Positions 24,740-64,000 are shown, counted from the stretch's first letter. The stretch: 64,000 bases of DNA from Bacteroides sp. CAG:545 (GCA_963659725.1 CAVKUS010000002.1:31494-95493), one strand, 5' to 3'. Notes: generated by a model not told the origin, from the sequence alone. Made by a program: numbers and translations.

Positions 24740-24990
24740 GAACAAAAAATGCAATGACCGGGAAAAATTACCTGCCCCAGCATCCAGAGAGACGGCGTAT
24801 GGTGCAAGCCGCCAGCAAGCAGGCAAAGAAGCTCACCCGTGAGCAGCTTCTCTGAACCAAGTAGGAGCAGACGTTTCCAGCACGTTACGTTGCCGATCCG
24901 CTAATCGGGAAAATTAAGTACAACTTAGGGTGGTACCGCGAAAAAATTTCGCCCCTATCTGCAAGCGCAGATAGGGGCTATTTATTTCAT
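24740..24990 (+). promoter_or_regulatory. T-box leader, probably Leu-specific (CUC specifier)
   Basis: AGAGAG bay (24786-24791) and GGTGCAA distal element are present. The specifier loop ...AAGAAG-CUC-A... (CUC at 24832-24834) lies between the cctgc/gcagg and cggg/cccg helices. The T-box sequence is ttagggtggtaccgcg (24925-24940). The terminator gcccctatctgc...gcagataggggc (24951-24978) is followed by a T-rich tail. leuCDB lies downstream. Confidence 0.85.
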
Positions 24991-25145: not shown

Positions 25146-26411
25146 ATGGGAATGACAATGACGCAAAAAATCTTAGCCAAGCACGCTCACCGCGACAGCG
25201 TAAGCGCCGGCGACCTGCTTGTTTCTCAGGTAGATTTAGTATTAGCAAATGATATCACCGGTCCTCCGGCAATCAATGAATTCGAAAAAATCGGCAAGCC
25301 GGTATTTGATAAAAATAAAATTGCTCTGGTTCCGGACCATTTCTCTCCCTGCAAGGATATCAAATCCGCAACCATGTGCAAGCGTATGCGCGACTTCGCC
25401 CGCAAGCACGAAATCAAAAACTACTTTGAAGTAGGCCAGATGGGTATCGAGCATGCACTGCTGCCTGATAAAGGCCTTGTTGCCCCCGGTGAAATCATCA
25501 TTGGTGCCGATTCCCACACCTGCACCTATGGCGCACTCAATGCGCTGAGCACCGGCATGGGCCAGACCGATATCGGCTGCGCTATGGCCAGTGGCACCTC
25601 CTGGTTCAAGGTTCCGCAGGCTATCAAGGTTAACCTGACAGGCAAGCTGCCGAAATACGTTAAAGGCAAGGACATCATCCTGACCATCATCGGTATGATT
25701 GGCGTTGACGGTGCCCGTTACCAATCTTTGGAATTCACTGGCGAAGGCGTCAGCGAGCTTTCGATGGCCGACCGTTTAACTATCTGCAACATGGCTATTG
25801 AGGCCGGCGGCAAAAACGGTATTTTCCCCGTTGACGAAAAAACCATCGAATTCTTGAAGGAACGCGGCGTAACCCGTGAATGGGAAGCAGTTACTGCGGA
25901 CGAAGACGCTGAATATGCCCGCGTACTCGATATTAAGCTCGACGAGCTTGTTCCTGTTGTTGCTTATCCGCATCTGCCGGAAAACACTCATCCTGCTAAG
26001 GAAGGTCATGCAATCAAAATCGACCAGGTTGTCATCGGCTCCTGCACCAACGGCCGTTTGGAAGATCTTGAACAGGCTGCCGAAATTCTCAAAGGCCACA
26101 AGGTTTGCGACCATGTGCGTATGATTATCATCCCGGCAACCCAACAGATTTATCAGGAAGCTATGCACCGCGGTTACATTGATACCTTTATTGATGCAGG
26201 CGCAGCCGTTTCCACTCCGACCTGTGGTCCCTGCCTGGGCGGTTACATGGGTATCCTCGCAGCAGGCGAGCGCGCTGTTTCCACCACAAACCGTAACTTC
26301 CGCGGCCGCATGGGCCATGTCGACAGCGAGGTTTATCTGGCAAGCCCCTATACCGCTGCAGCCAGTGCCATCACCGGTTATATCACCAGCCCTGAGGAGG
26401 TAGTAAAATGA
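25146..26411 (+). CDS. leuC: 3-isopropylmalate dehydratase large subunit
   Basis: 421-aa aconitase-family protein (short LeuC type) with cluster Cys motifs (GSCTNGR, CGPCLG). It follows a Leu T-box and is followed by leuD and leuB. Confidence 0.92.
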
Positions 26412-36173: not shown

Positions 36174-36772
36174 ATTGTTTAGATTAAATTCGTATTGTTA
36201 GCGATAAAATAAACCGCCGACAAACTTTATCAGCGTAAAAATCAAATGCAAACCTTGAGCCTGTAAAGGAGGTATATTAAGTAACTAATTTTATAGATAA
36301 TTGTGTAAAAATGCTGTCAAATATGACAGAAGAACTTAAAAAGCCATTAAGTTTAGTTTATGCTGACTTTATAGCAGTCGGAGCAGATGGAAAGAAACCA
36401 GTGACAGTTGAAAAAGTCTGTCTAACTATGGGATAGAACCCTGATGGTATCTGCTGGACAGTGGTAAATGCGAAAACCAAGCACGGTTGGCGAACCTGAA
36501 CGCAAATAAAAATATTATGAAAGGAAAAGCTACTTTTGATGTAATCGACAGACTTTCATAGACAAAATACTGTCGATATGTACCGATGGCTAGTCGGGAA
36601 TTTACGCCTTCGGAGTGTACAAGAACTTGTGAGTAGTTAAATCCTTGTGATTTAACCAAAGCATACACGATGAACAAGGAACTACAAATCGTGAGATTGT
36701 AGCGAAACATCTAGTATAGATATATTGGTCTATATTTTTAGTAGCAGAGTGCAGAATTTGAAACCATATAGC

Positions 36773-37843
36773 ATGCAAGAATTAGAAGAATGCGGCTTTT
36801 TATCAAAAATGTTCGGCAGCAAGCCTACCGAAAACGGCTGGAAGGAGCTCAACAATCTGTTGGCAGAAGCCCCCGACGCTTTAGCTGTCAGTGCCGATGA
36901 TGTGCATCATGCCCTGAAAAAATGGGGCGTAAAATTCCATGATGATAATTTCAACCAACGCAGCGGTATTTACCGTAAGCTGGCAGATGTTGTCTTTACT
37001 GAAGTGCAGTCTAAAGAAGACAGCCTTTGGACACAGCTTGCACATATGGCTGAAATTTTGGAGCTGCCGCCGCATCTGGCAAAGCAGGCTGATAAGGCAG
37101 CCAAAACTGCTGCTTATTTTGTCCGTTGCCGCGATTTGCTTGCAGGCACCGAAAAGCTGAATATTAAACAATTGAATGACCTATTCGGCTATGACTACGA
37201 AGACAGCCTTTCCATGCGTAAGCAGGTTTTTCAGGCTCATTTCAACCAGAAGTTTGATAAAATCAGCAGCGCACAGCGCTATACCCCGGAAGAAGAAGCT
37301 TCCCTGCGTGCCGACTGCGCAACTCTGGATATTCCCTACGAATTAAAGAATAATATTGTCAGCGCTCTGGAAAAATACCGCAGCCTGTGGAATGCAGAGC
37401 ATATGCCTTTAGGCGATATCAAGCAGGATGCCTTCCCGCTCAACCCCGGCGAAATCTGCCACGCTTATACCAACTGCGGTCTCTGCCAAAATAAAATGAT
37501 AGAACGCGAAGACAACTACTATGAGCTGACACGCAAATTCCGCATTGATGAAACTGTTGCCTTCAAGGGCGAAAAAATCGAGCATCCCAAATTCACCGAA
37601 GAAATGACTATTATCGAAGAGCTCGGTATGTTCTTCCTTACCAACCAACGTTTAGTTTACATTGGTAAGAAGAATGCCTTCCATATCCCGCTCAACGTTC
37701 TCAGCGGTGCTGATTTTGACGGCATCAATATAGTAACCTTCCATCACACCGATGGTACAGACAGTATCTTTAAATTCAGCGACGAGGCTGCCGGAGTTTT
37801 GTACATCCTGTTCGAAAGAACCTTAAAGGCTGCCAAAGCATAA
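36773..37843 (+). CDS. Hypothetical protein with a C-terminal bacterial PH-like (GRAM/YokE-like) domain
   Basis: The ORF track gives 36725..37843. The probable start is M17 (MQELEECGFLSKMFG). The C-terminus reads ...GMFFLTNQRLVYIGKKNAFHIPLNVLSGADFDG.... The helical N-terminal ~230 aa are unassigned. Confidence 0.6.
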   Translation: MQELEECGFLSKMFGSKPTENGWKELNNLLAEAPDALAVSADDVHHALKKWGVKFHDDNFNQRSGIYRKLADVVFTEVQSKEDSLWTQLAHMAEILELPPHLAKQADKAAKTAAYFVRCRDLLAGTEKLNIKQLNDLFGYDYEDSLSMRKQVFQAHFNQKFDKISSAQRYTPEEEASLRADCATLDIPYELKNNIVSALEKYRSLWNAEHMPLGDIKQDAFPLNPGEICHAYTNCGLCQNKMIEREDNYYELTRKFRIDETVAFKGEKIEHPKFTEEMTIIEELGMFFLTNQRLVYIGKKNAFHIPLNVLSGADFDGINIVTFHHTDGTDSIFKFSDEAAGVLYILFERTLKAAKA

Positions 37844-51545: not shown

Positions 51546-52559
51546 TTATAACTCTCTGCCGACAATGTTCGCAATGCCTCTGAGGTCGCCCATCAGCTTA
51601 GCAAAACGGTCCGGCTTTAAGGATTGGGCACCATCGCACCATGCTGCTTCAGGATTGTTATGTACTTCAATAATCAAACCGTCCGCACCTACTGCAACCG
51701 CAGCCTTAGCCAAGGGCTCTACCATCCACCACATGCCTGCTGCATGGCTCGGGTCAACTACTACCGGCAGATGGCTGAGTCTTTTTACTGCAGGAATAGC
51801 GCTTACGTCAAGCGTATTGCGGGTGTAGGTTTCAAAGGTACGGATACCGCGTTCGCAAAGGATAACATTCTCGTTGCCCTCGCTCATTATGTATTCCGCT
51901 GCCATCAGCCATTCCTCAATCGTTGCCGCCAAACCGCGCTTCAAAAGAATAGGCTTATTGGTTTTGCCCAATTCCTTCAGCAAATCGAAGTTCTGCATAT
52001 TGCGGGCACCGACCTGAATCAGGTCAACATCCTCAACAAAGCGTTCCACCATGTAAGGTGACATGATTTCCGTAACAATCGGCAGGCCGGTTGCTGCTCT
52101 GGCATTTTTCAGGAAATCCAGGCCTTTTTCCTTTAAACCCTGGAAGGAGTACGGAGAAGTGCGGGGTTTAAACGCACCGCCACGCATCAGCGTAGCGCCT
52201 GCGGCCTTAACATCCTCGGCAATTTCCGTTACCTGCTCCTGGGTTTCTACGGAACATGGACCTGCAATAACCTGCAGCTTTTTGCCGCCAAACTTTCTGC
52301 CTGCAACATCTACAATGCTGTCCTCGGGATGGAACATGCGGTTCGCACGTTTGAAAGGCTCCTGCACACGCATTACCTTTTCTACACCCTCGACAACACG
52401 CAAAAGGTTGATATCCAAAGCGCTGGTATCACCAACAACACCAAACAGAGAGGCATTTACGCCATCACTGGCATGAATCTGGAAGCCCTTGCTTTCTAAT
52501 TGGTTTTTCAGCTTAGTTTTTTCCTCAACAGTTGCATTTTGTTTGAATACGATAATCAT
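51546..52559 (-). CDS. aroF: 3-deoxy-7-phosphoheptulonate (DAHP) synthase, type I-beta, with an N-terminal ferredoxin-like regulatory domain (copy 1)
   Basis: 337 aa. A TIM-barrel core (...IAGPCSVE..., ...LKRG..., ...DPSH...) follows a ~70-aa ACT/FL-like N-domain, as in the Thermotoga-type enzymes. Confidence 0.9.
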   Translation of the reverse strand: MIIVFKQNATVEEKTKLKNQLESKGFQIHASDGVNASLFGVVGDTSALDINLLRVVEGVEKVMRVQEPFKRANRMFHPEDSIVDVAGRKFGGKKLQVIAGPCSVETQEQVTEIAEDVKAAGATLMRGGAFKPRTSPYSFQGLKEKGLDFLKNARAATGLPIVTEIMSPYMVERFVEDVDLIQVGARNMQNFDLLKELGKTNKPILLKRGLAATIEEWLMAAEYIMSEGNENVILCERGIRTFETYTRNTLDVSAIPAVKRLSHLPVVVDPSHAAGMWWMVEPLAKAAVAVGADGLIIEVHNNPEAAWCDGAQSLKPDRFAKLMGDLRGIANIVGREL

Positions 52560-52669: not shown

Positions 52670-53683
52670 TTACATATCTCTGCCGACAATTCTGGCAATG
52701 CCCTTCAGCTCGCCCATCAGTCTGGCGAAGCGTTCAGGTCTTAAGGACTGTGCGCCGTCACAAAGCGCTGCTTCCGGATTGTTGTGGACTTCTATCAAAA
52801 GTCCGTCGGCACCGACTGCTACAGCAGCCTTCGCCAGCGGCTCTACCATCCACCACAAGCCTGCTGCATGGCTCGGGTCAACTACTACCGGCAGATGGCT
52901 GAGCTTTTTCACAGCGGGAATTGCGCTTACATCCAGTGTATTGCGCGTATATGTTTCAAAGGTGCGGATACCGCGTTCGCAAAGGATAACGTTTTCATTG
53001 CCTTCGCTCATGATATATTCCGCTGCCATCAGCCATTCCTCAATCGTTGCTGCCAAACCGCGCTTTAACAAAATCGGCTTATTGGTCTTGCCCAGCTCCT
53101 TCAGCAGTTCAAAGTTCTGCATGTTGCGGGCGCCAACCTGAATCAAATCTACATCCTCTACAAAGCGCTCTATCATATACGGTGACATGATTTCTGTTAC
53201 TATCGGCAGACCTGTTTCCTTTTTGGCACCCTTTAAATAATCCAGGCCAACCTCCTTCAAGCCTTGGAAGGAATACGGCGATGTGCGGGGCTTGAAGGCG
53301 CCGCCGCGAAGCATTGAGGCGCCGCCAAGCTTGATGGACTTGGCAATATCCGTAACCTGCTCCTGCGTTTCTACGGAGCAAGGACCTGCGATAACCTGAA
53401 TCTTGCGTCCGCCGACTTCAACACCGCCGACATTAATCACTGAATCCTGCGGATGGAACATGCGGTTGGCCCGCTTGAACGGCTCCTGCACTCGCATTAC
53501 CTTGTCTACCGCATCATCAATACGCAGCATATTGATATCAAGTGTGCTCGTATCGCCGATGATACCGAAGATGGTCATGTTGACACCATTAATTTCGTTA
53601 ATTTGGAATCCCTTGCTTTCCAAATTGCTGCGCATTTTCGCTTTATTTTCCTCCGGTGCTCCCGGCTTGAATACTATTACCAT
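52670..53683 (-). CDS. aroF: DAHP synthase, type I-beta, with an N-terminal regulatory domain (copy 2, first gene of the operon)
   Basis: 337-aa paralog of 51546..52559. The catalytic core is almost identical and the N-terminal ~70 aa are clearly more diverged. Confidence 0.9.
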   Translation of the reverse strand: MVIVFKPGAPEENKAKMRSNLESKGFQINEINGVNMTIFGIIGDTSTLDINMLRIDDAVDKVMRVQEPFKRANRMFHPQDSVINVGGVEVGGRKIQVIAGPCSVETQEQVTDIAKSIKLGGASMLRGGAFKPRTSPYSFQGLKEVGLDYLKGAKKETGLPIVTEIMSPYMIERFVEDVDLIQVGARNMQNFELLKELGKTNKPILLKRGLAATIEEWLMAAEYIMSEGNENVILCERGIRTFETYTRNTLDVSAIPAVKKLSHLPVVVDPSHAAGLWWMVEPLAKAAVAVGADGLLIEVHNNPEAALCDGAQSLRPERFARLMGELKGIARIVGRDM

Positions 53684-53751
53684 AAATTGTCTCCCCTTCG
53701 TTCTGACACCCTTGTCATTTAATTTACCCTACTGCTATAAGCTACCATGCT

Positions 53752-53786
53752 ATAAAAAAAGCAGGCTCCCGTAAAAGAGCCTGCTG
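53752..53786 (-). terminator. Intrinsic terminator, candidate attenuator, upstream of the aro operon
   Basis: On the minus strand, a 9-bp stem agcaggctc-ttttacgg-gagcctgct is followed by ttttttt. It lies 70 nt upstream of the aroF ATG and 40 nt downstream of the leader ORF stop. Confidence 0.7.
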
Positions 53787-53827
53787 TAAAAGCTAAATCT
53801 TAATTGCAAGCACTGCGCTCGCAAATA

Positions 53828-53968
53828 CTATTTATAGTCTCCAATACGATGATTACTGCTATATGATTTTTTCCATGCAAAATAACCGGTGCTAAAATAA
53901 TAGTTAAAGACCGGTGCGTAATAAAAACCATATTCAATTGCAGTGTTCATCATTTTAGATTCCATCAT
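53828..53968 (-). CDS. 46-codon aromatic-rich leader ORF (candidate leader peptide)
   Basis: My translation is MMESKMMNTAIEYGFYYAPVFNYYFSTGYFAWKKSYSSNHRIGDYK*, with 8 Tyr, 4 Phe and 1 Trp out of 46. An AGGTGA Shine-Dalgarno lies just upstream. The ORF is below the size cutoff of the ORF track. Confidence 0.45.
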   Translation of the reverse strand: MMESKMMNTAIEYGFYYAPVFNYYFSTGYFAWKKSYSSNHRIGDYK

Positions 53969-54037
53969 TTTCACCTGCAACAACTTCAGCATTTCCGTAT
54001 GCTTCAAATTTTATCGCCGCAATCAGCGATTGAAGTT

Positions 54038-54067
54038 ATTTTACTCCTATCACTCTGCAAACGTCAA
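54038..54067 (-). promoter_or_regulatory. Candidate sigma70-type promoter for the aro leader and operon
   Basis: Minus strand reads TTGACG (54067-54062), an 18-nt spacer, then TAAAAT (54043-54038). Confidence 0.5.
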
Positions 54068-54175
54068 GGAAAAAGCTTAATTTTATTTATTTTTTATCTT
54101 ATCGCATTATTATTGTAAACTAGGTTACAGTAATAATACCAATTACAAAGCTTACATAGATTTTTTGTTACTGAC

Positions 54176-55006
54176 TTATAAGCTCGCTTCCAAAGCGCAG
54201 GGATTCATCAATGCGCCTACAGCATCTGCCCGACAACGGTTGCAATGCTGCATCTGCGGCATCCACTGCCTGCAAACATTACGCAGCTGCATAATTTCTT
54301 CGGCCGCAGGTTCCGCAAGATGCGCAAAGCCGGTTCCCTCCACCGGCAGCATCGGTAAAATATTCTGCAGCTTCGCTCCCAACAAAGCCATACGTCTGGC
54401 AATCGCCGGGATTTCCTGTATATTCACGCCGGGTATCGCCACCGTATTTATCTTCACCTTCACGCCGTATTCACCAAACAGCTGCAATCCTTCTATCTGT
54501 CTTTCCAACAACAGCGCAGCAGCCTCTTCGCCGACATATTTTTTGCCGTCATCATTGATAAAGCTGTAAATATGCGCCCCTGTATTGCTGGTAATTGCAT
54601 TCACCGTTACCGTAACATAATCAATACCTAAGGCTGCTATCTCCTTGGCATACTTCGGCAGATAAAGTCCATTAGTCGAAAGGCAGAAGAAAACATCCTT
54701 ATCAACCTCACGAATCATGCTCAGCGTTCTGCTGACCGCCGGCCAGTTGGCCAGTGCATCGCCGGGGCCGGCAATGCCTGCTACCGTCAGTTTCGGTACC
54801 TTAGCCTTCATCTGCAAATACCACTCGACTGCATCCTCCGGCACCATAACACGAGCTACGACACCGGGACGGCTTTCATTTACACAGCTATATTTGCGCA
54901 GGCAATAGTTACACTGCATGTTGCATTTGGGTGCGACTGGTAAATGAATGCGGGCATAATCGCTGCATTTAGCGGTAAAACAGGGATGTGTTTCAAGCTC
55001 ACTCAT
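54176..55006 (-). CDS. NifB-like radical SAM protein (radical SAM core only)
   Basis: From the ATG at 55006 the sequence is MSELETHPCFTAKCSDYARIHLPVAPKCNMQCNYCLRKYSCVNESRPGV..., the NifB-type N-terminal signature with CxxxCxxC. The ATG overlaps the upstream stop (ATGAGTGA). The longer ORF-track start at 55114 is unlikely. Confidence 0.8.
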   Translation of the reverse strand: MSELETHPCFTAKCSDYARIHLPVAPKCNMQCNYCLRKYSCVNESRPGVVARVMVPEDAVEWYLQMKAKVPKLTVAGIAGPGDALANWPAVSRTLSMIREVDKDVFFCLSTNGLYLPKYAKEIAALGIDYVTVTVNAITSNTGAHIYSFINDDGKKYVGEEAAALLLERQIEGLQLFGEYGVKVKINTVAIPGVNIQEIPAIARRMALLGAKLQNILPMLPVEGTGFAHLAEPAAEEIMQLRNVCRQWMPQMQHCNRCRADAVGALMNPCALEASL

Positions 55007-56234
55007 GATTAACCTCACAAATACTTTCACGCAAGCCGGCATACCGGCCATCGGATTTATACTGCTGCTGCAAGGCGCCGTTAACAATCTGCTCAATGAG
55101 CAAGGCAGCGCCACGCGCTCCTACAAGCGTATTATCGGTAAAGCACAGCCGGTCAAAGGCAGGATAGGCGCAGCGCACTAACGGCACCTGATATTTATCT
55201 GCCAAATTCTTTAAAAAAGAAGAACCGCAAAGCAATACAGGCTTGTGCTTTGCTGCAGTCGCTTCCATTTTATCCAAGCTAAATTCCGCCGTATCCTCTG
55301 CAATAACAACGCGCATGCCCAATTCTTCGGCAAAAAAGCTCTGTAAGCCCGCTAAATGTGCCTTGTCCGTAGCTAAAGCTACAGGCAGCTGATACAAATT
55401 CACCAGATAATCCGCACAGCGATAAACGAGCTTTTCAGCCGCAGCCTCCAGCTCTGCAAGCTCATCGGAAAAATCAATTTTCAATGCTTCGCCCAGCTGA
55501 CGCAAAAAATCTTGCATTCCCGCCACACCGTAAGGATAAGCGCATTTGATGTATTGCACGCCAAATTTTTCCTGCATTTTCTTCGCTAACGGCTCGCCAT
55601 AGCCGAAGCAGATATTCAGCTCTGCCTGCGGCATTGCTGCAATATCGCGCAAGCTGCAATCCTGCAGTACGCAGTTAATTTTAACCTTGGAACCTAAAAA
55701 TTTCTTCAGTTCTTCCAAATCATTATCCGCATAGGGATCATCATTCATTATGCCAAGAATATTTATCGTAGCAGCTTGTTTTTTCTCCGCAGCTCGGAGC
55801 AAGGGCACCAACGCTAAATAAGCTGCTTCTGCACCGCTGTCAATATTCCCTGCATATCCCGGCGCTTTTACATGCAATAATTTTTGTGAGCCTTCTGTCG
55901 TAGCCAAAATGCCGTCCACATCATCACCAATCATATTCGGCACACAGCCGCTGACTACAAAAACAGCTCCGCAATGCGCAAAAATACGCTCTGCCTCCTG
56001 CAAAGCTTTACGCAAAACCTTCTCGCCGCCATTGACAACATCTTCATCATAGATAACATCAGAGACCTGACGTACATCATAAGGCTTACCGGCATATCTG
56101 AATGCCAGGCTGCCCCACTGACAGCCTACAACAGAATGCTGCAGGATTAAGGCATCCTTAATTCCGCCAAGAGCACGTACAGCACCAAACAACGCACAGC
56201 TACTTAATGGTTTCATTATTTTCTCTGCCTCCAT
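54999..56234 (-). CDS. Nitrogenase component-1-family protein (NifK/NifN/BchB-like subunit)
   Basis: ...LILQHSVVGC..., ...DVVNGGEKVL... and ...VSGCVPNMIGDD... are Oxidored_nitro-type motifs. The alternative start is M7 at 56216, which overlaps the upstream stop (TAATG). Confidence 0.75.
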   Translation of the reverse strand: MEAEKIMKPLSSCALFGAVRALGGIKDALILQHSVVGCQWGSLAFRYAGKPYDVRQVSDVIYDEDVVNGGEKVLRKALQEAERIFAHCGAVFVVSGCVPNMIGDDVDGILATTEGSQKLLHVKAPGYAGNIDSGAEAAYLALVPLLRAAEKKQAATINILGIMNDDPYADNDLEELKKFLGSKVKINCVLQDCSLRDIAAMPQAELNICFGYGEPLAKKMQEKFGVQYIKCAYPYGVAGMQDFLRQLGEALKIDFSDELAELEAAAEKLVYRCADYLVNLYQLPVALATDKAHLAGLQSFFAEELGMRVVIAEDTAEFSLDKMEATAAKHKPVLLCGSSFLKNLADKYQVPLVRCAYPAFDRLCFTDNTLVGARGAALLIEQIVNGALQQQYKSDGRYAGLRESICEVNHE

Positions 56235-57715
56235 ACTCTGCTATACAGCTCGCGTGACGCTTTACTGTCTTTATCCGCCTCACGCATCGGATAAAATACC
56301 GGGTCATAAGCCAGCTTGCTCAGCAAAAGACTGCTGCCTGTACGCTGCGGTTGCTGCAGCATCTGCCAAACCTCTTCCATAATATCCACAAAGCCCTGAT
56401 AATTCCACACCGAACGGTCAAACAAATTATAGAGCACCGGAACATTTAAAGAAGCATAGCGCGGATGACCGTTGCAGATAACAAAATCACAGCTCTGCGC
56501 AGCTTCACGCAAAGCCTCTTCCGAAGGCTCCAGTAAAATTTCCGCATCACAGCCATACTCTGCTTTGGCAAGCTCAATTCTGTCCTTAAATCTCTGCATC
56601 ATTGCATCATCCAACCCGGTTTCTGCCTGATAAGAGGGATTCATGATAATGCATATTTTCGTAATCGGCAGACCATAATCCTGCTGGTAAACGCGCAGCG
56701 CATCCGGCAAATAGGCAATACCATGCGCAATCAGGCAGAATTTATACTTGGCAAATTCCGCACGCAGTTCCTGATACCGGGCGGCAACCCGTTCATATTC
56801 TTCCTGTAAAACGTGTTCGACAGCGCTCTCACAGCCAAGCATTTTGCCTATCTGTCTGTATAAATCACTGATTCCTTCAATGCCATGCCACTCCTGCATA
56901 TCGGCAACATGCAGAAACGGCGTGCCAAAGCGCTGCTCCATCGCCAATGCCCACTTCTTGCGACGTACTATATTCAGCGCTGCCCGCGGAGCCTTTTTGA
57001 TTGTCTGCAAATCAGCGGCAGGCAGATAAGCATTAACGGTAATTCCCATTTTCTGCAGCATATCGCTCATGCCCTGCAGCTTATCCTCACCATTATAACC
57101 CCAGACAAAGGCTTCAATATTTACGCTCAACGGCTCTACGCTTTGAGGCTCCATCACCTGCTCAACCAGCGCATCCATCACCTCTACATAGCCACAGCCG
57201 GGATAGACCGCACTGGAAGAAAACTTTTGCTTCTGCTTTTGGCAAGCCTTTTCACGCAAAACCTTGCGGCCGTTGCTCTTGTCCATATGCGAAAAAACCT
57301 GCGACGTAACCGGTACCAGCTTCGCTTTAAACTGCGGCTGCAGGCTGCAGGCCAAGCCAGCCAAATCGTCATTGATAATATCCGACACCACGGAAGGCAG
57401 CAGAAAAATAATCTCCGGCTGCTGCTCACGTTCCACCTTTTGCAGTAAAGCCGTCAGCTTTTTTTCACCGCCGAAAATTACATCATTGTTGCGTAAATCC
57501 GCACATTCCAGCTCATAAACCGGGCTTTGGCCGCTGCGCACATGACAGCGGTAATGAAAGCCGCAACCGCGCGGACTATACAAGACCACGGCAGCATTTT
57601 TGATTTCACTGATGCAGGCAAGATTTCCCGACACCTTGCCATTGACAGCATAGCGATGCAGATAACTTGAAGGGTTCATGCCAAAAAGCATGTTATCCTG
57701 ATAATATTGGTTCAT
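56216..57715 (-). CDS. Nitrogenase component-1-family protein (NifD/NifE/BchN-like subunit)
   Basis: ...VLYSPRGCGFHYRCH..., ...DVIFGGEKKL... and ...LLPSVVSDIINDD.... The third cluster Cys of canonical NifD/E is missing. AGAGAGGAAAAC Shine-Dalgarno. Confidence 0.75.
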   Translation of the reverse strand: MNQYYQDNMLFGMNPSSYLHRYAVNGKVSGNLACISEIKNAAVVLYSPRGCGFHYRCHVRSGQSPVYELECADLRNNDVIFGGEKKLTALLQKVEREQQPEIIFLLPSVVSDIINDDLAGLACSLQPQFKAKLVPVTSQVFSHMDKSNGRKVLREKACQKQKQKFSSSAVYPGCGYVEVMDALVEQVMEPQSVEPLSVNIEAFVWGYNGEDKLQGMSDMLQKMGITVNAYLPAADLQTIKKAPRAALNIVRRKKWALAMEQRFGTPFLHVADMQEWHGIEGISDLYRQIGKMLGCESAVEHVLQEEYERVAARYQELRAEFAKYKFCLIAHGIAYLPDALRVYQQDYGLPITKICIIMNPSYQAETGLDDAMMQRFKDRIELAKAEYGCDAEILLEPSEEALREAAQSCDFVICNGHPRYASLNVPVLYNLFDRSVWNYQGFVDIMEEVWQMLQQPQRTGSSLLLSKLAYDPVFYPMREADKDSKASRELYSRVWRQRK

Positions 57716-57752
57716 AGAGTTTTCCTCTCTTCATAATATATCATTACAATTT

Positions 57753-59288
57753 TTACTCATCATCTGTTACAAGTTCAATTTTATTGATGGCACCGTAATT
57801 TTTTATACGACTGCTGGTCGCAGCAATTGCCATATCGTTGAACAAAGGAACTACAGGCTGCTCTTCAACAGCAATTTCTTGTATTCTATTGAATATCTCC
57901 CGTCGTTTCTGCTCATTTGTAGTATGCTTTACCTCGTTCATCAATTCAACAATTTCATCATTTTCATACGCAACGCTGTTGTTCTTGTTTAACGCTCCGT
58001 CAGGCATTACAAAGGGATACAAGGCAGTATACGGATCTCCGTTAGCCAAACCCTTTTGCAAACGAACTATATTACACTCTCCTTTCCGTATCATTTTTAA
58101 TAAGGTTGCATATTCCAATACTCTTATTTTAACATCTAAACCAATATCTTTCAGCCAATAAGCAATAATTTCTGCTTCGCCTTTTTGCAAAGGCTCCGCT
58201 CCGTTAATTCCGTAAACAACCTCAATACGCTTATCTCCAAGCACCTCATGTGCAAGACGTTTCGCTTCTTGCAAGTCATGCCTTACTGGGAACTCTTTAT
58301 ATCCCGGACTGCAATAATTCAAAATGTTAACAGTCGGTATGGCATAGCCCATATATAGAGCATTAACTAAATCCTGCCTATCAATTGCCAGACTTACAGC
58401 CTGCCTCATCCTGACATCATTAAAAGGAAATTTAGTACCGTTTAATGCCAAATAGCGTACCATCGTCGATTTATTTTTATAAACAACAAAATTGCTATCC
58501 TTTTTCAGTTCTTCCGCTAAAAAAGGCGGTATTGCATTCAAATCGGTTACACCGTCAATTTCGCCGGATTTTAATGCAGCATAACGTGTATCCGTATTAG
58601 GTATTTTGCGCACAATAAATGTTTTTATTTTGCCCTTTTCACCCCAATAATTATCATAACGCTCTATCTTAACATGACTGTTCAGTTTATTTTCTATTAT
58701 TCTATATGGTCCGGTGCCTATTGCGAAGGTTTTAAAATTACCATCTTCAGCGAAGCATTCCGGAGCATAAATCGGACTGCCAAAATCAGTCATCTTATAC
58801 AGTTCGTTTATATTCGCTTCTTTAAAGGTCAATTTAACAGTATACTCATCTAATTTTTCATATTTCAACAGCGAAGGATAAAATGCATCTATATTCAAGC
58901 CATAAAAGGTTGAACGCTTAACACCCTTTTTCATCCGGTCAAAATTAGCAATCACCGAATCCGCATTAAATTTTGTTCCGTTATGAAACAGGACATTTTT
59001 ACGCAGATGAAAAATCCAAATTTTACCATTGTCCTGCATCTCCCAGCTTTGCGCCAGACAAGGTGCAGGCTTATTATCCTTGTCCTTAGTAATCAAAGGC
59101 TCCCAAACACCTAATGAGCTGCTGCAATAATAGGCATCCTTATTACCAGGAGCAAGCTGACGATAGCCGGCAAGAATCACTGTATCATTATCTTTATTTA
59201 TAGTATTTTCTTTGATATCTTCCTGCTTGCCGCAACCGGTCGCAAGAACGAGTAATATAAGAGCAATAATACAATATATTTTTTTCAT
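57753..59288 (-). CDS. Family-5 (NikA/OppA/DppA-type) solute-binding lipoprotein, orphan (copy 1)
   Basis: From the ATG at 59288 the sequence is MKKIYCIIALILLVLATGCGKQ, which contains a lipobox. SBP_bac_5-type sequence follows (...LAQSWEMQDNGKIWIFHLRKNVLFHNGTKFNADSV...). No permease or ATPase gene is adjacent. Confidence 0.85.
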   Translation of the reverse strand: MKKIYCIIALILLVLATGCGKQEDIKENTINKDNDTVILAGYRQLAPGNKDAYYCSSSLGVWEPLITKDKDNKPAPCLAQSWEMQDNGKIWIFHLRKNVLFHNGTKFNADSVIANFDRMKKGVKRSTFYGLNIDAFYPSLLKYEKLDEYTVKLTFKEANINELYKMTDFGSPIYAPECFAEDGNFKTFAIGTGPYRIIENKLNSHVKIERYDNYWGEKGKIKTFIVRKIPNTDTRYAALKSGEIDGVTDLNAIPPFLAEELKKDSNFVVYKNKSTMVRYLALNGTKFPFNDVRMRQAVSLAIDRQDLVNALYMGYAIPTVNILNYCSPGYKEFPVRHDLQEAKRLAHEVLGDKRIEVVYGINGAEPLQKGEAEIIAYWLKDIGLDVKIRVLEYATLLKMIRKGECNIVRLQKGLANGDPYTALYPFVMPDGALNKNNSVAYENDEIVELMNEVKHTTNEQKRREIFNRIQEIAVEEQPVVPLFNDMAIAATSSRIKNYGAINKIELVTDDE

Positions 59289-59305
59289 AACACTACCAAA
59301 ACAAT

Positions 59306-59341
59306 GTAATTTAAAGAAAAGAGGGCGTAAAACCGCCCTCT
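59306..59341 (-). terminator. Intercistronic terminator-like hairpin between the receptor and lipoprotein genes
   Basis: On the minus strand, an 8-bp stem agagggcg/cgccctct is followed by tttctttaaa. An equivalent hairpin occurs at 63615-63653. Confidence 0.55.
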
Positions 59342-59354
59342 TAAACATCATAAA

Positions 59355-61547
59355 TTAAATATCAAATTGAGCAGACAGCATGAAAGTTCTGGGGCTGGAC
59401 AAATGCAAGCCGGAACCATAAGCAATCCAATAATCTTTACCGGTCAGATTATAGCACATAGCACTCAATGTAACAGGCATTTTATTAATTTGTGTCTTGT
59501 AATTAACGCCTGCATCAAAAGTAGTATAAGAAGGAACTTCCCATTCAATCGCATTGCTTGCGGGGAAAATAGGAGTAGGACCAACATATACGGCTCTTGC
59601 CAAAATTGACAAATCATTATTCGGTTTATATTGTAAGCCGGCAACAGCGTTGAATCTCGGAATCCCGCCTACTCTGTAGCCATCATAGGTACCTTTATTG
59701 GTTCTTACTCTTTCTGTATCAAGATACATTAAACCGCCAAAAGCATTCCATTTATCTGCAATGGCTCCGTTGATAGACAGCTCAATACCCTTATACTCAT
59801 TTTCGCCGTCATTGGTAACCCAATACCAATCAGGCTTTTTATCGTCATATACGTTTAAGGTAGAGGACTCTCTGTTTTTAAACAAAGCCAGTGTAGCCAA
59901 GAAATTCTTGTTGCTGTATTTAACACCGATTTCGTCCATTTTTGTTTTAGACGGGTCTAAGATTTCATCTGCGTTATAAGCGTTTGCACCGCTTACTCTG
60001 CTGCCTGCATCAAAAAATTCGGAATGGCTGGCATAAATGGATACTTCATCGGTGGGCTGGTAAACAAAGCCGTAAGCAGGACAAACAGCGCTGGACTTAA
60101 CACTTGCTACCTTGCCAGATTTAGTCGGATCTGGATAGGTTACAGCATTGGATTCATGCTTATGCACGCCTAACATCATCTGAGCCTTGCCTAATTTCAT
60201 AGTATCTAACAGAGACACACCCCAGAAGGTTCTTGTACTGTTATGGAAATTACTAAAGGTAGGAATATTTACGCTCTCATTAGGATTAACGCCACCTGCC
60301 AAGGTACCGCCTAAGCCTTTGAAGTTAGTCAGGCCATAACCGCCGACAACACCGGTCCAGGACTTAGACCAGGATTTGTCAACTGCCAAAACCACATCAT
60401 GTTCAACCTCACCGGTTTTAAAAGTGTTCTCGATACCGGTCTGTACATAATATTTATGTCCAGGAGTTCTTCTGGTAAAATATTTGCCTGCATAATTGCC
60501 TGCATCATCAAGAATATATAAGCGGCTGCCTTGACCGGTAATATTTTTACGTAAATTGCTTCTTGTCCAACCGCCGTTAAAGAAGGCCTTGGTGCCGTGA
60601 CCGATTACCTGCTCATGGTTCAGTACCATCAATGCGCCTTCAGAGGCTTTGGTCATGCCGGGGAAGCTGTAATTGTTTTTGGAATTCGGAGCAGAGGGAA
60701 CATGAGTCAAAAGACCTTTTTTTACATTATTAGCATCAAAGCCAAACCATCTCATACCATCATCAACTTCATAATATTGATAACCGACAAGCAAATTAGA
60801 TTTGCTGTTAGCATCCTGATGATCGATGTTGGCAAAAATGCTGGAAGACTCTTTGCTGGCTTTATAATGACCGGGGTTACCATTTAAGATCTCTGTATTT
60901 ACTCTAACGCCCCATTCGTCATTCTTACCAAATCTTTTGCCGATATCCAGATATTCACCTAAGCCACTTTCACCGGAGAATACTTGTTTATATCTGAGCA
61001 CGGGCTTATCAAGTGCTTTTTTGGTATCGACGTTTACTACTGCAGCAACACCGGTGCCTTCACCTGTGGGGAAAGAGCCGGAAATAGCTTTATTCGGACC
61101 TTCTGTAACCTGAATACTCTCAGCCATAAAAGTCGGAACTAAAAACTGACCTAACATACCGGGAACACCATTCAGATAGAAGAAGGAACCATTGGTAGAT
61201 TTACCTCTTACAGAAAAATCGCCATGCAGCATGGTACCGGTCTGACGCACGGAAGGAATATTTACCAGAATATTATCCAAAGGCTGGTTCATACCGCCAA
61301 AGGTTTCCATAGCGTCAGCTGTAACATTGGTTTGAGAAAAAGGCACATCCATTACATTTTTATTGCCAATAATACCGACATTACCGGTTTTGGTAACCAT
61401 ACCACCCGGCAGTACATCTGCACTTCCCTCAACAATAACCTCTTCCAGATTACCATGCATAGTTTCTGCACTTGCGCTCATCACAAAGCCTATGCTTGCT
61501 ACTGCGCACAGCACTGACATTGCCAATGCTTTTTGGTTTTTCATCAT
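59355..61547 (-). CDS. TonB-dependent outer-membrane receptor
   Basis: From the ATG at 61547 (GAGGTG Shine-Dalgarno 7 nt upstream) the signal peptide is MMKNQKALAMSVLCAVASIGFVMSASA. A plug domain and beta-barrel follow, ending with an aromatic-containing C-terminus ...SAQFDI. The ORF-track start at 61697 runs into the riboswitch. Confidence 0.88.
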   Translation of the reverse strand: MMKNQKALAMSVLCAVASIGFVMSASAETMHGNLEEVIVEGSADVLPGGMVTKTGNVGIIGNKNVMDVPFSQTNVTADAMETFGGMNQPLDNILVNIPSVRQTGTMLHGDFSVRGKSTNGSFFYLNGVPGMLGQFLVPTFMAESIQVTEGPNKAISGSFPTGEGTGVAAVVNVDTKKALDKPVLRYKQVFSGESGLGEYLDIGKRFGKNDEWGVRVNTEILNGNPGHYKASKESSSIFANIDHQDANSKSNLLVGYQYYEVDDGMRWFGFDANNVKKGLLTHVPSAPNSKNNYSFPGMTKASEGALMVLNHEQVIGHGTKAFFNGGWTRSNLRKNITGQGSRLYILDDAGNYAGKYFTRRTPGHKYYVQTGIENTFKTGEVEHDVVLAVDKSWSKSWTGVVGGYGLTNFKGLGGTLAGGVNPNESVNIPTFSNFHNSTRTFWGVSLLDTMKLGKAQMMLGVHKHESNAVTYPDPTKSGKVASVKSSAVCPAYGFVYQPTDEVSIYASHSEFFDAGSRVSGANAYNADEILDPSKTKMDEIGVKYSNKNFLATLALFKNRESSTLNVYDDKKPDWYWVTNDGENEYKGIELSINGAIADKWNAFGGLMYLDTERVRTNKGTYDGYRVGGIPRFNAVAGLQYKPNNDLSILARAVYVGPTPIFPASNAIEWEVPSYTTFDAGVNYKTQINKMPVTLSAMCYNLTGKDYWIAYGSGLHLSSPRTFMLSAQFDI

Positions 61548-61659
61548 ACTCATACACCTCATCAAAAATTTATTTTCTAACCTTAGCTGCCGAGCTGTCC
61601 GAGTTTCGCATGCAACGACGGTTAAAAGCCATGTGTTGCGGGATTTGCGTTTTCCAGCA

Positions 61660-61895
61660 AGAAAAACGCCTTCCTGCAAAATTACAGAAAGGCGCACTCA
61701 TTCCCTAGTAGCCTCCTGTCACTCGCAGTACACTCCCGTTAACTTTTTCAGGCAATTCTTCTGGCTCAGTTTCTTCGCAAGTCTTGCCTTCCCGGTTTCC
61801 CAGTGACGTAATTAAGGCTTGCTCCACTTTACAGCTGCGTGACAGCGCAGGCTTCGCACCTGCTTATTTATTAAGTCTTTCGACACCTGATAGTT
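61660..61895 (-). promoter_or_regulatory. Cobalamin riboswitch with a terminator expression platform
   Basis: The minus strand reads ...aGGTGcgAAgCCtgcGCTGtcaCGCAgCTGTAAag...gtCACTGGgaaaCCGGGAAGGCaag...GAGCCAGAAGAATTGCCtg (a B12-box-like element at 61751-61767). A 10-bp terminator stem cgcctttctg/caggaaggcg plus ttttt lies at 61660-61695. Confidence 0.8.
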
Positions 61896-61946
61896 CAAGC
61901 ATTTTTTGTTTTTAATATTATATTTGTTACATTTTTATTTGTCAGA

Positions 61947-61975
61947 ATTATAACACATCTATATATTCATGTCAA
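61947..61975 (-). promoter_or_regulatory. Consensus sigma70-type promoter upstream of the riboswitch
   Basis: Minus strand reads TTGACA (61975-61970), a 17-nt spacer, then TATAAT (61952-61947). Confidence 0.7.
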
Positions 61976-62038: not shown

Positions 62039-63595
62039 TTACTCATGCTCATTCATCAGCTCAACCTTACTCAAATCCACTCCATAAATTAAAGGCTTGT
62101 AGTTTTTCAAACGCTTATTGTAAGCAACAATATTCATATCGTTAAAAAGCGGAATAACAGGCTGTTCATAGCCAATAATGTCCTGCACCCTATCAAAAAC
62201 ACGCTGTCTTTCTTTCTCATCAGCTATATGCTTCACGTTATTCATTAAAGTAATAACCTCAGTATTTTTATAAGCAAAACGATTGCTTACATTCAACGCG
62301 CCATCAGGCATTACAAAGGGATATAAAGCACTGAAAGGATCACCATTTGCCAAGCCTCTTTGAGTTCGCACAATATTGAAATCACCCTTGCGCAACATTT
62401 TCGCCAATGTAGCATATTCTATCGACTTAATTTTTACATCCAAGCCAATTTCCTGCAACCAATAAGCAATAAGCTCCGCTTCACCCTTTTGCAAAGGCTC
62501 GCTGCCATTGATGCAATACGTAATTTCGCATCTATTATCGCCTAAGACCTCATGCGCTAATCTTTTTGCTTCCTGCAAATCATATATAACAGGCAAAACC
62601 TTATAACCGGGACTAGTGTAATTTAAGATATTAACCGTCGGCTCGGCATAATCCAAGTACATATTATGCACCAGATTTTTTCTGTCGATTGCAAGGCTTA
62701 CAGCTCTGCGCATACGAATATCATTAAAAGGGAACTTGGTACCGTTAAGTCCCAAATAACGAATCATTGTTGATTTATTTGTTCCGACCTTAAAGCGCGG
62801 ATCTTTTTTTATTTCCTCAGCCAAAAAGGGTGGTATAGCATTGATATCAATAACTCCGTCTATCTCTTCAGATTTCAGTGCAGCATAGCGTGTATCCGTA
62901 TTGGGAATCGTCCGCACAACATACTTAGCTATTCTGCCCTTTTCTCCCCAATAATTTTCATTTCGCTGAAGAACAACATATTTATTTAAAGCATTCTCTG
63001 TTATTTTATAAGGTCCCGTACCAATTGCAACACTCTTAAAATTGCCGTCTTCGGCAAAGCAGTCTGGTGCATAGATAGGACTGCCAAAATCAGTCATCTT
63101 ATACAGTTCATTGACATTTGCTTCTTTAAAAAGCAGACGAATAGTGTAGTCATCTATCTTTTCATATTTTATGAGAGTCGGATAATACGTTTCCATATTC
63201 AAGCCATAAAAAGAAGAACGCTTATAACCTTTCTTCATGCGATCGAAGTTGGCAATTACAGAATCCGCAGTAAATTTTGTGCCATTGTGAAAATACACAT
63301 CCTGACGCAGGTGAAAAATCCATTCTTTGCCGCCATCACGCATCTCCCAGCTTTGCGCCAAGCAAGGAGCCGGTCTGTTATCGGCATCCTTGGTAATAAG
63401 CGGCTCCCATACTCCCAGAACGCGACTGCAATACAATCCATCTTTGTTGCCGGGAGCAAGATGCCTGTAAGCTGCCAGAACAACAACATTCTTCTCACTG
63501 CTTTTATCTATATTCTTTTGTTCTTGCTTTTGATTCCCGCAGCCTGTTAATAATATAAACAAAAGCAGAAATATAATGCTTAAAATTTTTTTCAT
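62039..63595 (-). CDS. Family-5 solute-binding lipoprotein, orphan (copy 2)
   Basis: MKKILSIIFLLLFILLTGCGNQ contains a lipobox. The protein is a close paralog of 57753..59288 over its full length. Confidence 0.85.
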   Translation of the reverse strand: MKKILSIIFLLLFILLTGCGNQKQEQKNIDKSSEKNVVVLAAYRHLAPGNKDGLYCSRVLGVWEPLITKDADNRPAPCLAQSWEMRDGGKEWIFHLRQDVYFHNGTKFTADSVIANFDRMKKGYKRSSFYGLNMETYYPTLIKYEKIDDYTIRLLFKEANVNELYKMTDFGSPIYAPDCFAEDGNFKSVAIGTGPYKITENALNKYVVLQRNENYWGEKGRIAKYVVRTIPNTDTRYAALKSEEIDGVIDINAIPPFLAEEIKKDPRFKVGTNKSTMIRYLGLNGTKFPFNDIRMRRAVSLAIDRKNLVHNMYLDYAEPTVNILNYTSPGYKVLPVIYDLQEAKRLAHEVLGDNRCEITYCINGSEPLQKGEAELIAYWLQEIGLDVKIKSIEYATLAKMLRKGDFNIVRTQRGLANGDPFSALYPFVMPDGALNVSNRFAYKNTEVITLMNNVKHIADEKERQRVFDRVQDIIGYEQPVIPLFNDMNIVAYNKRLKNYKPLIYGVDLSKVELMNEHE

Positions 63596-63665: not shown

Positions 63666-64000
63666 TTAAATATCAAACTGCGCAGACAGCATAAAGGTTC
63701 TGGGAGCACCAAGAGCTACAGAAGTACCTCTGGAAATCCAGTAATTCTTGTCAAACGCATTGTAGCACATTGCATTCAAGGTTACCGGAACATGGTTGAT
63801 AGCAGTTTTATATTTTACGCCAAAATCAAAGGTCATGTAGTCAGGAGCTTTTACACCATTATCATTAACATGGGATTCACCAACGTAATTAGCTCTGCCG
63901 ATAAAGGAGGTGTTTTTATCTGCTTCATATTCAGCAGCTAAAACAGCATTCCACTTCGGAGTACCGGTAGCAAACTTGCCTTCCAGGTTTTCCTTACCCA
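63666..64000 (-). CDS. TonB-dependent receptor, C-terminal fragment. The gene continues beyond the window.
   Basis: Reverse translation ends ...MLSAQFDI*, the same C-terminus as the receptor at 59355..61547. The preceding beta-strand-like sequence is also similar. Confidence 0.8.
   Translation of the reverse strand, partial: GKENLEGKFATGTPKWNAVLAAEYEADKNTSFIGRANYVGESHVNDNGVKAPDYMTFDFGVKYKTAINHVPVTLNAMCYNAFDKNYWISRGTSVALGAPRTFMLSAQFDI

Follow-up and report, generated by a model that had tools for sequence, protein, structure and literature searches.

We analyzed a 64,000-nt stretch of DNA assigned to Bacteroides sp. CAG:545 (GCA_963659725.1 CAVKUS010000002.1:31494-95493), here referred to as the window. 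Its minus strand carries an operon in which a cobalamin riboswitch is followed by five codirectional genes coding for a TonB-dependent receptor, an SBP_bac_5-type lipoprotein, two proteins with an Oxidored_nitro domain, here named NflD and NflK, and a NifB-like radical SAM enzyme. The last three genes appear to belong to a distinct clade of nitrogenase-like (NFL) systems in which the link to B12 is conserved, and we tentatively propose that this clade takes part in the salvage of an imported tetrapyrrole during B12 starvation. The features of the operon, from promoter to last gene, are as follows.

61975-61947, minus strand: sigma-70 promoter, TTGACA-17-TATAAT with a TG extension, 12/12 match to the consensus
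61903-61734, minus strand: cobalamin riboswitch aptamer (RF00174), 85.1 bits with the Rfam covariance model
61695-61656, minus strand: intrinsic terminator of the riboswitch expression platform, with a 13-pair stem (6 GC) at 61695-61666, a 4-nt loop, and then TTTTTCTTGCT
59355-61553, minus strand: TonB-dependent outer-membrane receptor of the siderophore-receptor type (Pfam Plug and TonB_dep_Rec_b-barrel)
59342-59319, minus strand: GC-rich hairpin with a weak T tract, 9-pair stem (6 GC), AAGAGGGCGGTTTTACGCCCTCTT then TTCTTTAAAT
57753-59288, minus strand: SBP_bac_5 substrate-binding lipoprotein, 511 aa, lipobox LATGC, NikA/CntA/HbpA-like (PF00496, 266 bits)
56216-57715, minus strand: NflD-like nitrogenase component-1 protein, 499 aa (PF00148, 145 bits)
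54999-56216 or 54999-56234, minus strand: NflK-like nitrogenase component-1 protein (PF00148, 234 bits)
54176-55006, minus strand: NifB-core radical SAM enzyme, 276 aa, without a NifX-like domain (TIGR01290, 308 bits)

The promoter is the best match within the scanned region. The leader behind it, which the initial annotation had called riboswitch-like, proved to be a strong RF00174 match that spans model positions 1 to 189 of 189 (E = 1.6e-19; gathering score, 31.5). The terminator hairpin starts 39 nt past the aptamer and is also present in the minimum-free-energy fold, so that a full aptamer and an expression platform were both found. A second covariance model, R1, was derived from a MAFFT-based alignment of six Rfam-confirmed riboswitches of the family and was used as a screen only; the 150.9 bits that it gives the window riboswitch are reached partly by construction, because the window's own riboswitch is among the six. 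The element is predicted to be a terminator-based OFF switch for adenosylcobalamin-type corrinoids, since the NFL genes share their leader with uptake genes of a kind that cobalamin riboswitches repress everywhere, and the operon would accordingly be expected to come on when B12 is scarce.

All five genes proposed by the initial annotation are backed by Pfam or NCBIfam matches, and the two start/stop overlaps that it had noted were read directly from the sequence, with TAATG joining nflD and nflK and ATGAGTGA joining nflK and nifB. NflK is 405 aa long if it starts at the ATG at 56216, which overlaps the upstream stop codon, or 411 aa long if it starts at 56234. The gap between the lipoprotein gene and nflD is 37 nt and holds a ribosome-binding site. 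This short distance, together with loci elsewhere in which the riboswitch stands directly before nflD, supports the view that the Nif-like genes have no separate promoter. Promoter, riboswitch, terminator, and the five genes thus evidently form one transcription unit. The receptor starts at one of the ATGs at 61553, 61547, or 61544, and the true start of the lipoprotein is MKKIYC..LATGC at 59288, for which a longer open reading frame (ORF) was set aside. The hairpin at 59342-59319 sits within the 66-nt gap between these two genes; it is possibly a partial terminator or an RNA-processing site that sets the levels of the receptor and the downstream genes apart, and it might attenuate read-through from the receptor gene into the lipoprotein and NFL genes.

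Classification and distribution of the nitrogenase-like clade

The initial annotation described NflD and NflK as a NifD/K-type pair. PF00148 is found in both subunits, which places them in the nitrogenase component-1 family, and neither reaches an equivalog cutoff for NifE, NifN, NifD, or NifK; they are better regarded as members of a distinct NFL clade with an IsrDK-type arrangement of one plus three cysteines. The best equivalog match is NifE (TIGR01283), with 89 and 104 bits for the two subunits against a cutoff of 505; NifN (TIGR01285) gives 54 bits against 327, and the BchN/B, BchZ, and CfbD equivalogs give 70 bits or less against cutoffs of 268 to 529. Compared with solved structures, the family profile matches fused NifEN (3e-33), NifD (1e-24), MarD (1e-23), and ChlB (1e-17). 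The AlphaFold model of NflD (pLDDT, 82) is about equally close to MarD, NifD, NifE, and BchB in Foldseek (TM of ~0.5; 14 to 21% identity), with MarD as the top match (TM of ~0.5; ~20% identity). A profile search of 1.84 billion representatives returned 112 proteins below 1e-30, and the remoter full-length relatives are unnamed NFL proteins.

The conserved residues follow the same line. Among 69 NflD sequences, C51 (equivalent to NifD Cys88), C174 in a GCG motif, H20, H54, and H143 are invariant, and in NflK C13, C38, and C97 are 100% conserved in 59 sequences and are aligned by HMMER with the cluster cysteines of NifE and NifD. The asymmetry pointed out in the initial annotation, in which the cysteine of the CxxxxIGDD motif is present only in the 411-aa subunit, is therefore real and conserved across the family. 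With one cysteine in NflD and three in NflK, a single bridging [4Fe-4S] cluster is predicted, which would be held at the subunit interface by NflD C51 and NflK C13/C38/C97. The known ligands of FeMo-cofactor and of the Mar L-like cluster are absent from both proteins. NflK of the window does have a cysteine, in the sequence LNICF, that aligns with NifE Cys250/NifD Cys275; it is found in only 32% of the 59 members, most often being replaced by Val, and hence is not a ligand of the family.

In the NifB-like protein, H43, C45, H57, C64/C68/C71, C144, C291, and C294 are 96 to 100% conserved and C77 is 92% conserved (52 sequences). We take the corresponding elements, that is, HPC, His57, CxxxCxxC, Cys77, Cys144, and the CxxC-RADA segment, to be the ligands of the RS, K1, and K2 clusters known from NifB structures, so that both the radical SAM motif and the auxiliary-cluster ligands are accounted for. 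The protein scores 308 bits with TIGR01290 and misses the cutoff of 343.65 because its match covers model positions 5 to 276 of 441 and the NifX-like C-terminal domain is absent; it is thus a NifB core only.

Several known groups were considered and rejected as the identity of this system. NifEN is ruled out by the equivalog scores and the nonconserved cofactor cysteine, and DPOR/COR and CfbD are ruled out by their scores. Mar (group IV-C) is ruled out since only four cysteines occupy P-cluster positions and equivalents of Cys270 and His429 are absent. The group VI NFL proteins of the Elusimicrobia type, which occur in a tetrapyrrole- and radical-SAM-rich context, can likewise be set aside: genomes with group VI only have no NifB (PMC13474568), whereas a NifB core is adjacent to the NFL genes in 54 of 68 loci of the present family. 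IsrDK has a 1+3 cysteine pattern, with a single interface [4Fe-4S] cluster predicted, and lacks the FeMo-cofactor and mar2-cluster ligands (PMC13474568). On the basis of its residues, scores, maturase type, and NifH-like features, we provisionally file the system as an uncharacterized NFL clade that appears to combine an Isr-like electron-transfer cluster with a Nif/Mar-like maturase.

A scan of one genome per species with the 499-aa NflD family as the query found members in 67 species. Within the Negativicutes, these are Phascolarctobacterium, Succiniclasticum, and Selenomonas; within the Clostridia, they are Flavonifractor plautii, Intestinimonas, Oscillospiraceae, Lachnospiraceae, Clostridium arbusti, Peptococcaceae, Tissierella, and Christensenellales; the remainder are one metagenome-assembled genome of the Chloroflexota and the actinobacterium Propioniciclava. 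Eighty loci were fetched with 10-kb flanks, gene strings were built with phmmer seeds, and neighborhoods were counted over 68 loci. The core order, NflD-NflK-(NifH-like)-NifB-like, is invariant. No NifH-like sequence was found by tblastn in the 64-kb window, as the initial annotation had stated, and the same holds for the 10-kb flanks of the 33 other Negativicutes loci; all other branches do encode a NifH-like ATPase in the operon. It is present in 31 of the 68 loci, all of them outside the Negativicutes, and lies between nflK and nifB. These NifH-like proteins keep the Walker A motif and both cluster cysteines, and they score just under the NifH and CfbC cutoffs. When a NifH-like protein of the family was used as a query in a database search, 8,000 matches were obtained, few of which are named, with no Negativicutes among the best 120.

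Across the family loci, R1 identified 65 cobalamin riboswitches, and its hits were reconfirmed with Rfam in 22 loci and in the window. An automated walk upstream along codirectional genes reaches a riboswitch in 42 of the 68 loci, in 16 of which it stands directly before nflD. Reading of the gene strings added three loci (L054, L060, and L070) that the walk had missed because of spurious antisense ORFs, which brings the loci with an upstream riboswitch on the same strand to at least 45; in ~13 of the 68, the contig ends within the upstream genes. Rfam confirmation was obtained in every sampled lineage, including the Chloroflexota (L045), Propioniciclava (L064), Peptococcaceae (L067), F. plautii (L075), and Intestinimonas (L049). 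The gene-neighborhood survey thus makes the B12 link far stronger than the one operon on which it was first proposed, and B12 control of the NFL family is ancient and conserved and not an accident of local operon fusion.

Two observations on riboswitches near the family genes may be added. Six RF00174 matches lie within 13 kb in Flavonifractor sp. An306 (L046:1-13228), a dense B12-regulon island. At another locus, a full-length RF00174 element (L057:14703-14876; 92.9 bits) lies right after the NFL operon and upstream of genes for the small and the large subunit of methylmalonyl-CoA mutase (15240-19603); control of a B12-dependent enzyme by a B12 riboswitch is the reverse of the usual logic.

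Importer cassettes and strain variation

In 42 of the 68 loci, genes for an importer, either Peripla_BP_2/FecCD/ATPase or SBP_bac_5/OppBCDF, lie in the codirectional run upstream of nflD. The gaps between importer genes and nflD are tight, stop-start overlaps are frequent, and the Negativicutes add TonB-dependent receptors (TBDRs). Some of the remaining loci have importer genes downstream of the NFL genes or divergent from them. Clustering of the other neighboring ORFs showed that, apart from the importers and TetR (six loci), no family recurs across genera. The importer proteins themselves are difficult to place. The receptor of the window scores 216.7 bits with TIGR01783 (cutoff, 223.5), and its nearest solved structures are FemA and BauA; neither family models nor solved structures gave a BtuB match, and the TonB-siderophore subfamily was the only one found. 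For the lipoprotein, the top NCBIfam matches are NikA (185 bits; cutoff, 393) and CntA (152 bits; cutoff, 800), and the nearest Protein Data Bank (PDB) entries are 5u4o, the heme-binding HbpA, DppA, and NikA. The Peripla_BP_2 proteins of other loci fall between the "F420-0"-type, EitA, IsdE, and BtuF models and are also related to siderophore binders.

In a few loci, further genes accompany the importers. At L077:4192-6461, the riboswitch is followed by genes for CbiK-like and NEAT-like proteins, both with signal peptides and the latter a lipoprotein, and then by Peripla_BP_2, FecCD, and ATPase genes and the NFL genes. At L078:14145-20394, genes for a Peripla_BP_2 fusion and a 1,252-aa CobN-like protein come after nifB. 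Five SBP_bac_5 genes stand in tandem in F. plautii (L075:1-8400), under a riboswitch that is divergent from the NFL operon. In a distant, NifH-containing clade, a second cluster (L005:1-4730) adjoins the riboswitch-controlled importers of an NFL locus and contains genes for a methyltransferase-Peripla_BP_2 fusion, FecCD, an ATPase, an FmdE-domain protein, DUF2284, and DUF2115.

NflD of the window is 93 to 98% identical to proteins from assemblies of Phascolarctobacterium succinatutens, in whose sister contigs the region between the riboswitch and nflD differs by strain. The type strain, YIT 12067 (L018), has the order riboswitch-TBDR-substrate-binding protein (SBP)-oppBCDF-nflD. Three contigs (L019, L021, and L027) share the arrangement of the window, preceded by one or two more TBDR-SBP cassettes and an oppBCDF set. 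In L016 and L020, the order is TBDR-Peripla_BP_2-FecCD-ATPase, and in L014 and L015, the riboswitch immediately precedes nflD. A Fec-type version that is linked to TetR and lacks a riboswitch is found in CAG:287 (L025) and L009. Among strains with such similar NflD proteins, at least five importer arrangements, including none, are thus found between riboswitch and nflD, which makes the locus a hot spot for the exchange of cassettes. The window itself contains a second TBDR-SBP cassette directly upstream of the operon.

62039-63595, minus strand: paralogous SBP_bac_5 lipoprotein of the preceding cassette, 518 aa (PF00496, 266 bits)
63666-64000, minus strand: further TonB receptor gene, 3' end cut by the window edge (phmmer against TBDR seeds, E = 3.5e-28)

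The two SBPs of the window are 69% identical to each other, and the matching receptors, compared in L027, are 40% identical. As the initial annotation had reported, the window has no ABC permease or ATPase gene homologous to those of the family importers. Its description of the binding lipoprotein as an orphan, however, was an artifact that arose from where the window ends and from the variation of cassettes between strains, because permease genes fall past the edge of the window or in neighboring cassettes: the near-identical sister contigs L018, L019, and L027 carry permease and ATPase genes of the oppBCDF type at a distance of one or two cassettes upstream.

A TauE/SafE-family gene (sulfite-exporter family) follows nifB in ~10 Phascolarctobacterium loci (for example, L019:13676-14416, L014, L018, L020, L021, L027, and L009). 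It is cleanly absent from the window, in which just 493 nt (the 53684-54175 region) lie between nifB and a gene for DAHP synthase, and from all non-Negativicutes loci. Being restricted to one genus and missing from the window, TauE was rejected as a clue to a function in sulfur metabolism. Two of the contigs used here look mislabeled, namely, L027, which is 98% identical to a Phascolarctobacterium locus and is filed in an "Escherichia coli" bin, and L024, a 73%-identical contig with a TonB receptor gene that is filed as "Ruminococcus intestinalis."

Elsewhere, the window has the makeup of ordinary chromosomal DNA and contains genes for glutamate synthase and PBP2, aro genes, and a leuC-like gene preceded by a T-box. 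Next to the operon on its downstream side, two tandem paralogous genes for DAHP synthases with N-terminal regulatory (FXD) domains (51546-52559 and 52670-53683, minus strand) head an aro cluster that is syntenic in sister strains. The T-box leader (24745-24959, plus strand; 109 bits) lies upstream of the gene for the aconitase-family LeuC-like protein (25146-26411, plus strand), and a RAGATH-18 RNA (36607-36681, plus strand; 69.7 bits) lies just before a 372-aa ORF without a Pfam match (36725-37843, plus strand).

Possible functions in B12 economy

The initial annotation offered two ideas, namely, that the module imports and processes a corrinoid or cobalt chelate and that it encodes a B12-sparing enzyme, and these remain the two leading explanations, with function being deduced from sequence in both. 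We tentatively favor a version of the first, in which the operon is a B12-starvation salvage module whose NFL enzyme reduces an imported tetrapyrrole of the B12 family to a usable form. When B12 is scarce, the TonB receptor and the lipoprotein, together with permeases that may be shared with neighboring cassettes, would take up a corrinoid, a damaged form or analogue of one, or an oxidized precursor such as uroporphyrin or sirohydrochlorin. The NifB-core enzyme, to judge from its conserved residues, would build a carbide-type [8Fe-9S-C]-like cluster, which probably is held in NflD, with the invariant C174 and His residues as candidate ligands. Electrons would pass from the NifH-like ATPase, encoded in the operon outside the Negativicutes, through the interface [4Fe-4S] cluster to the active site of NflD, and this ATP-driven, low-potential reduction in the cytoplasm would make the cargo usable for the B12 pool. 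Candidate reactions are the reduction or repair of corrinoid Co and the conversion of a porphyrin to a porphyrinogen. We know of no enzyme for the proposed step. A broader statement, that this NifB-matured NFL clade is dedicated to the B12 economy of anaerobes and uses ATP to drive the very-low-potential reduction of an imported cobalt tetrapyrrole or an oxidized B12 precursor, is conceivable as well, but we hold it with more reserve.

A tetrapyrrole cargo is hinted at by the HbpA/NikA-like lipoprotein, by the relationship of the Peripla_BP_2 proteins to IsdE and BtuF, and by the CbiK-, NEAT-, and CobN-like neighbors, and the many paralogous binding proteins and receptors resemble multitransporter corrinoid scavenging. 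There is also precedent for the chemistry. DPOR, COR, and CfbCD are NFL enzymes that reduce tetrapyrroles (PMC13474568), clusters of the NifB-type [8Fe-9S-C] kind supply Ni-F430 with electrons within the MCR activation complex (PMC12176620), and a NifB-type cluster has been placed beside the Mtr corrinoid (bioRxiv 10.64898/2026.07.03.736320).

A number of points weigh against salvage of a tetrapyrrole. The known tetrapyrrole-reducing NFL enzymes have simple [4Fe-4S] clusters and no NifB, and the NifB-associated ones (Mar, Nfa, and nitrogenase) reduce small molecules (PMC13474568). The substrate is suggested by the neighbors only, with no substrate-specific signature; no transport protein of the family reaches an equivalog cutoff, and the receptor is of the siderophore type and not of the BtuB type. 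No cbi or cob biosynthesis genes are adjacent, and tblastn of the window and of 33 other Negativicutes loci with 10-kb flanks found no NifH-like partner. Even strains of a single species differ in the type of importer, so that importers and NFL genes could be merely coregulated. Finally, four loci without a riboswitch are true exceptions, these being the two TetR-linked ones (L009 and L025) and two from Selenomonas (L040 and L043). Both Selenomonas loci consist of nflD-nflK alone, with no riboswitch, nifB, nifH, or importer gene within 10 kb and with flanking genes on the opposite strand (coding for an MCP in L040).

The strongest competitor, which we consider less probable, is a B12-sparing bypass. 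Here, a Mar/Isr-like reductase would cleave a small molecule, for instance, a C-S compound to yield methanethiol for B12-independent methionine synthesis, and the importers would merely belong to the same regulon. B12 riboswitches classically control B12-independent isozymes, such as metE and nrdDG, which are switched on when the B12-dependent enzymes fail. At the 16 loci in which nflD has its own riboswitch, no importer gene intervenes, and importer cassettes are interchangeable; against this, nflD is joined into importer operons, with overlaps or gaps of <40 nt, in many independent lineages. The cysteine pattern equals that of IsrDK, but IsrB is BciD-like and not NifB-like, and the equivalents of the MarD residues Cys270 and His429 are lacking. 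The maturase, as a true NifB core, retains the full set of cluster ligands, which is in keeping with the small-molecule substrates of the NifB-associated NFL systems (PMC13474568). In contrast to the situation at the Mar and Isr loci, genes for sulfur, methionine, or other metabolism are not repeatedly found beside the family from one genus to the next, and the TauE/SafE gene, which would fit such a role in Phascolarctobacterium, shows the restricted distribution described above.

Somewhat less probable still is the release of cobalt, in which a nontetrapyrrole cobalt chelate would be imported and the NFL enzyme would break the ligand or reduce inert Co(III), so that the cobalt set free could enter the de novo synthesis of B12. 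That B12 riboswitches control ABC importers of the Ni/Co type is a known pattern of cobalt uptake. The similarity of the receptor to FemA and BauA, its fit to the TonB-siderophore subfamily, and the NikA and staphylopine binder CntA as the best named matches of the lipoprotein would suit such a cargo, but all transporter matches are under the family cutoffs, and no metallophore biosynthesis genes lie nearby. Moreover, the many diverged receptor and binder paralogues suggest a chemically diverse class of ligands and not one cobalt chelate, and the secreted CbiK-like protein and the NEAT-like and CobN-like neighbors point to tetrapyrroles.

It is very improbable that the operon is an iron or heme acquisition module that stands behind a riboswitch-like element by chance. 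Such a module could account for the siderophore-type receptor, the HbpA/IsdE-like binders, and the NEAT-like neighbor; however, it is a high-scoring RF00174 element and not Fur-type control that precedes the family in at least three phyla, and cobalamin riboswitches occur in tandem, with the cluster of six in L046. That these are ordinary NifE, NifN, and NifB genes for FeMo-cofactor assembly in a diazotroph can hardly be maintained, for although NifE and NifEN head the named sequence matches, NifB-like ligands are conserved, and a 3+1 cysteine site also occurs in NifEN, the scores are far from the NifE and NifN cutoffs, the cysteine aligned with the NifE cofactor ligand is a minority trait, neither the window nor the 80 loci with their 10-kb flanks contain nifHDK, and the riboswitch and importer context is that of gut fermenters.

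In the full-text literature, from which subscription journals were outside the scope, we found no paper that ties nitrogenase-like or NifB genes to cobalamin riboswitches or B12 uptake, and supplements of comparative-genomics studies may hold an earlier mention; those of a cobamide comparative-genomics paper include none of the relevant genera. A July 2026 review of NFL systems does not contain the word "riboswitch" and, as clues from context, names associations with sulfur and with tetrapyrroles only (PMC13474568). What is new here is an NFL system in a new regulatory and genomic setting, with a distinctive combination of ligands and maturase: a whole clade marked by a cobalamin riboswitch and physically joined to importers. 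Since the clade occurs in cultivable and abundant gut genera (Phascolarctobacterium, Flavonifractor, Intestinimonas, Succiniclasticum, and Selenomonas), its function is directly testable. For the B12 field, it represents a large, energetically expensive, and unexplained addition to the B12 regulon in gut bacteria that form propionate and butyrate. Bioinorganic chemistry gains a NifB-dependent enzyme in which none of the known L/M-cluster ligands is present in the D/K pair and which, in the Negativicutes, has no obvious Fe protein. If salvage of a tetrapyrrole is the correct explanation, the recurrence of this B12-controlled module would point to an undescribed role of nitrogenase relatives in B12 supply, and clusters of the [8Fe-9S-C] type would have a new role in the physiology of bacteria that are abundant in the human gut.

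Comparison with known systems

In its regulation and transport genes, the family is most readily compared with btuB/btuFCD and the multitransporter loci of Bacteroides. These have an RF00174 leader, a TonB receptor, and a binding protein, and they share with many of the relatives a Fec-type ABC importer and several diverged paralogous cassettes. They differ in that the receptor of the present family is of the siderophore type and its binding protein is of the SBP_bac_5 type. To our knowledge, no btu locus carries nitrogenase-like or NifB genes.

Among the nitrogenase relatives, DPOR (BchLNB), COR (BchXYZ), and CfbCD have an asymmetric single [4Fe-4S] cluster (3+1, as in BchN/BchB), the longest alignment to NflD in a single stretch is that of ChlB, and the neighborhood of the family is tetrapyrrole flavored, as for these enzymes. 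However, they have no NifB and are encoded in clusters for pigment or F430 biosynthesis, whereas the family has a NifB core. NifEN and NifB provide the best hidden Markov model and PDB sequence matches, and they share the asymmetric 3+1 cysteine [4Fe-4S] site and the RS/K1/K2 ligands. In contrast to NifEN, the three-cysteine subunit of the family is encoded by the second, shorter gene, the cofactor cysteine is not conserved, nifHDK is not nearby, and control is by B12.

Mar (MarBHDK) resembles the family in its NifB-like maturase without a NifX domain and in the good sequence match of MarD to NflD. It has six P-cluster cysteines as well as Cys270/His429 for an L-like cluster, whereas the family has four cysteines and neither of these ligands, and it sits in a sulfur-metabolism context that the family does not share. 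IsrBHDK (group IV-F) of Rhodobacter capsulatus has a similar B/H/D/K-type gene set, and IsrDK, compared by its published pattern, likewise has cysteines at the NifD-88 and NifK-70/95/153 equivalents only. The two systems part at the maturase, since IsrB is a BciD-like protein that consists of the radical SAM domain alone and has only 13.8% similarity to NifB and the B protein of the family is a true NifB core. They also differ in gene order, which is B-H-D-K in Isr and D-K-H-B in the family, and in setting, with Isr being sulfur regulated among sulfonate genes and the family being regulated by B12 riboswitches among importers of chelates.

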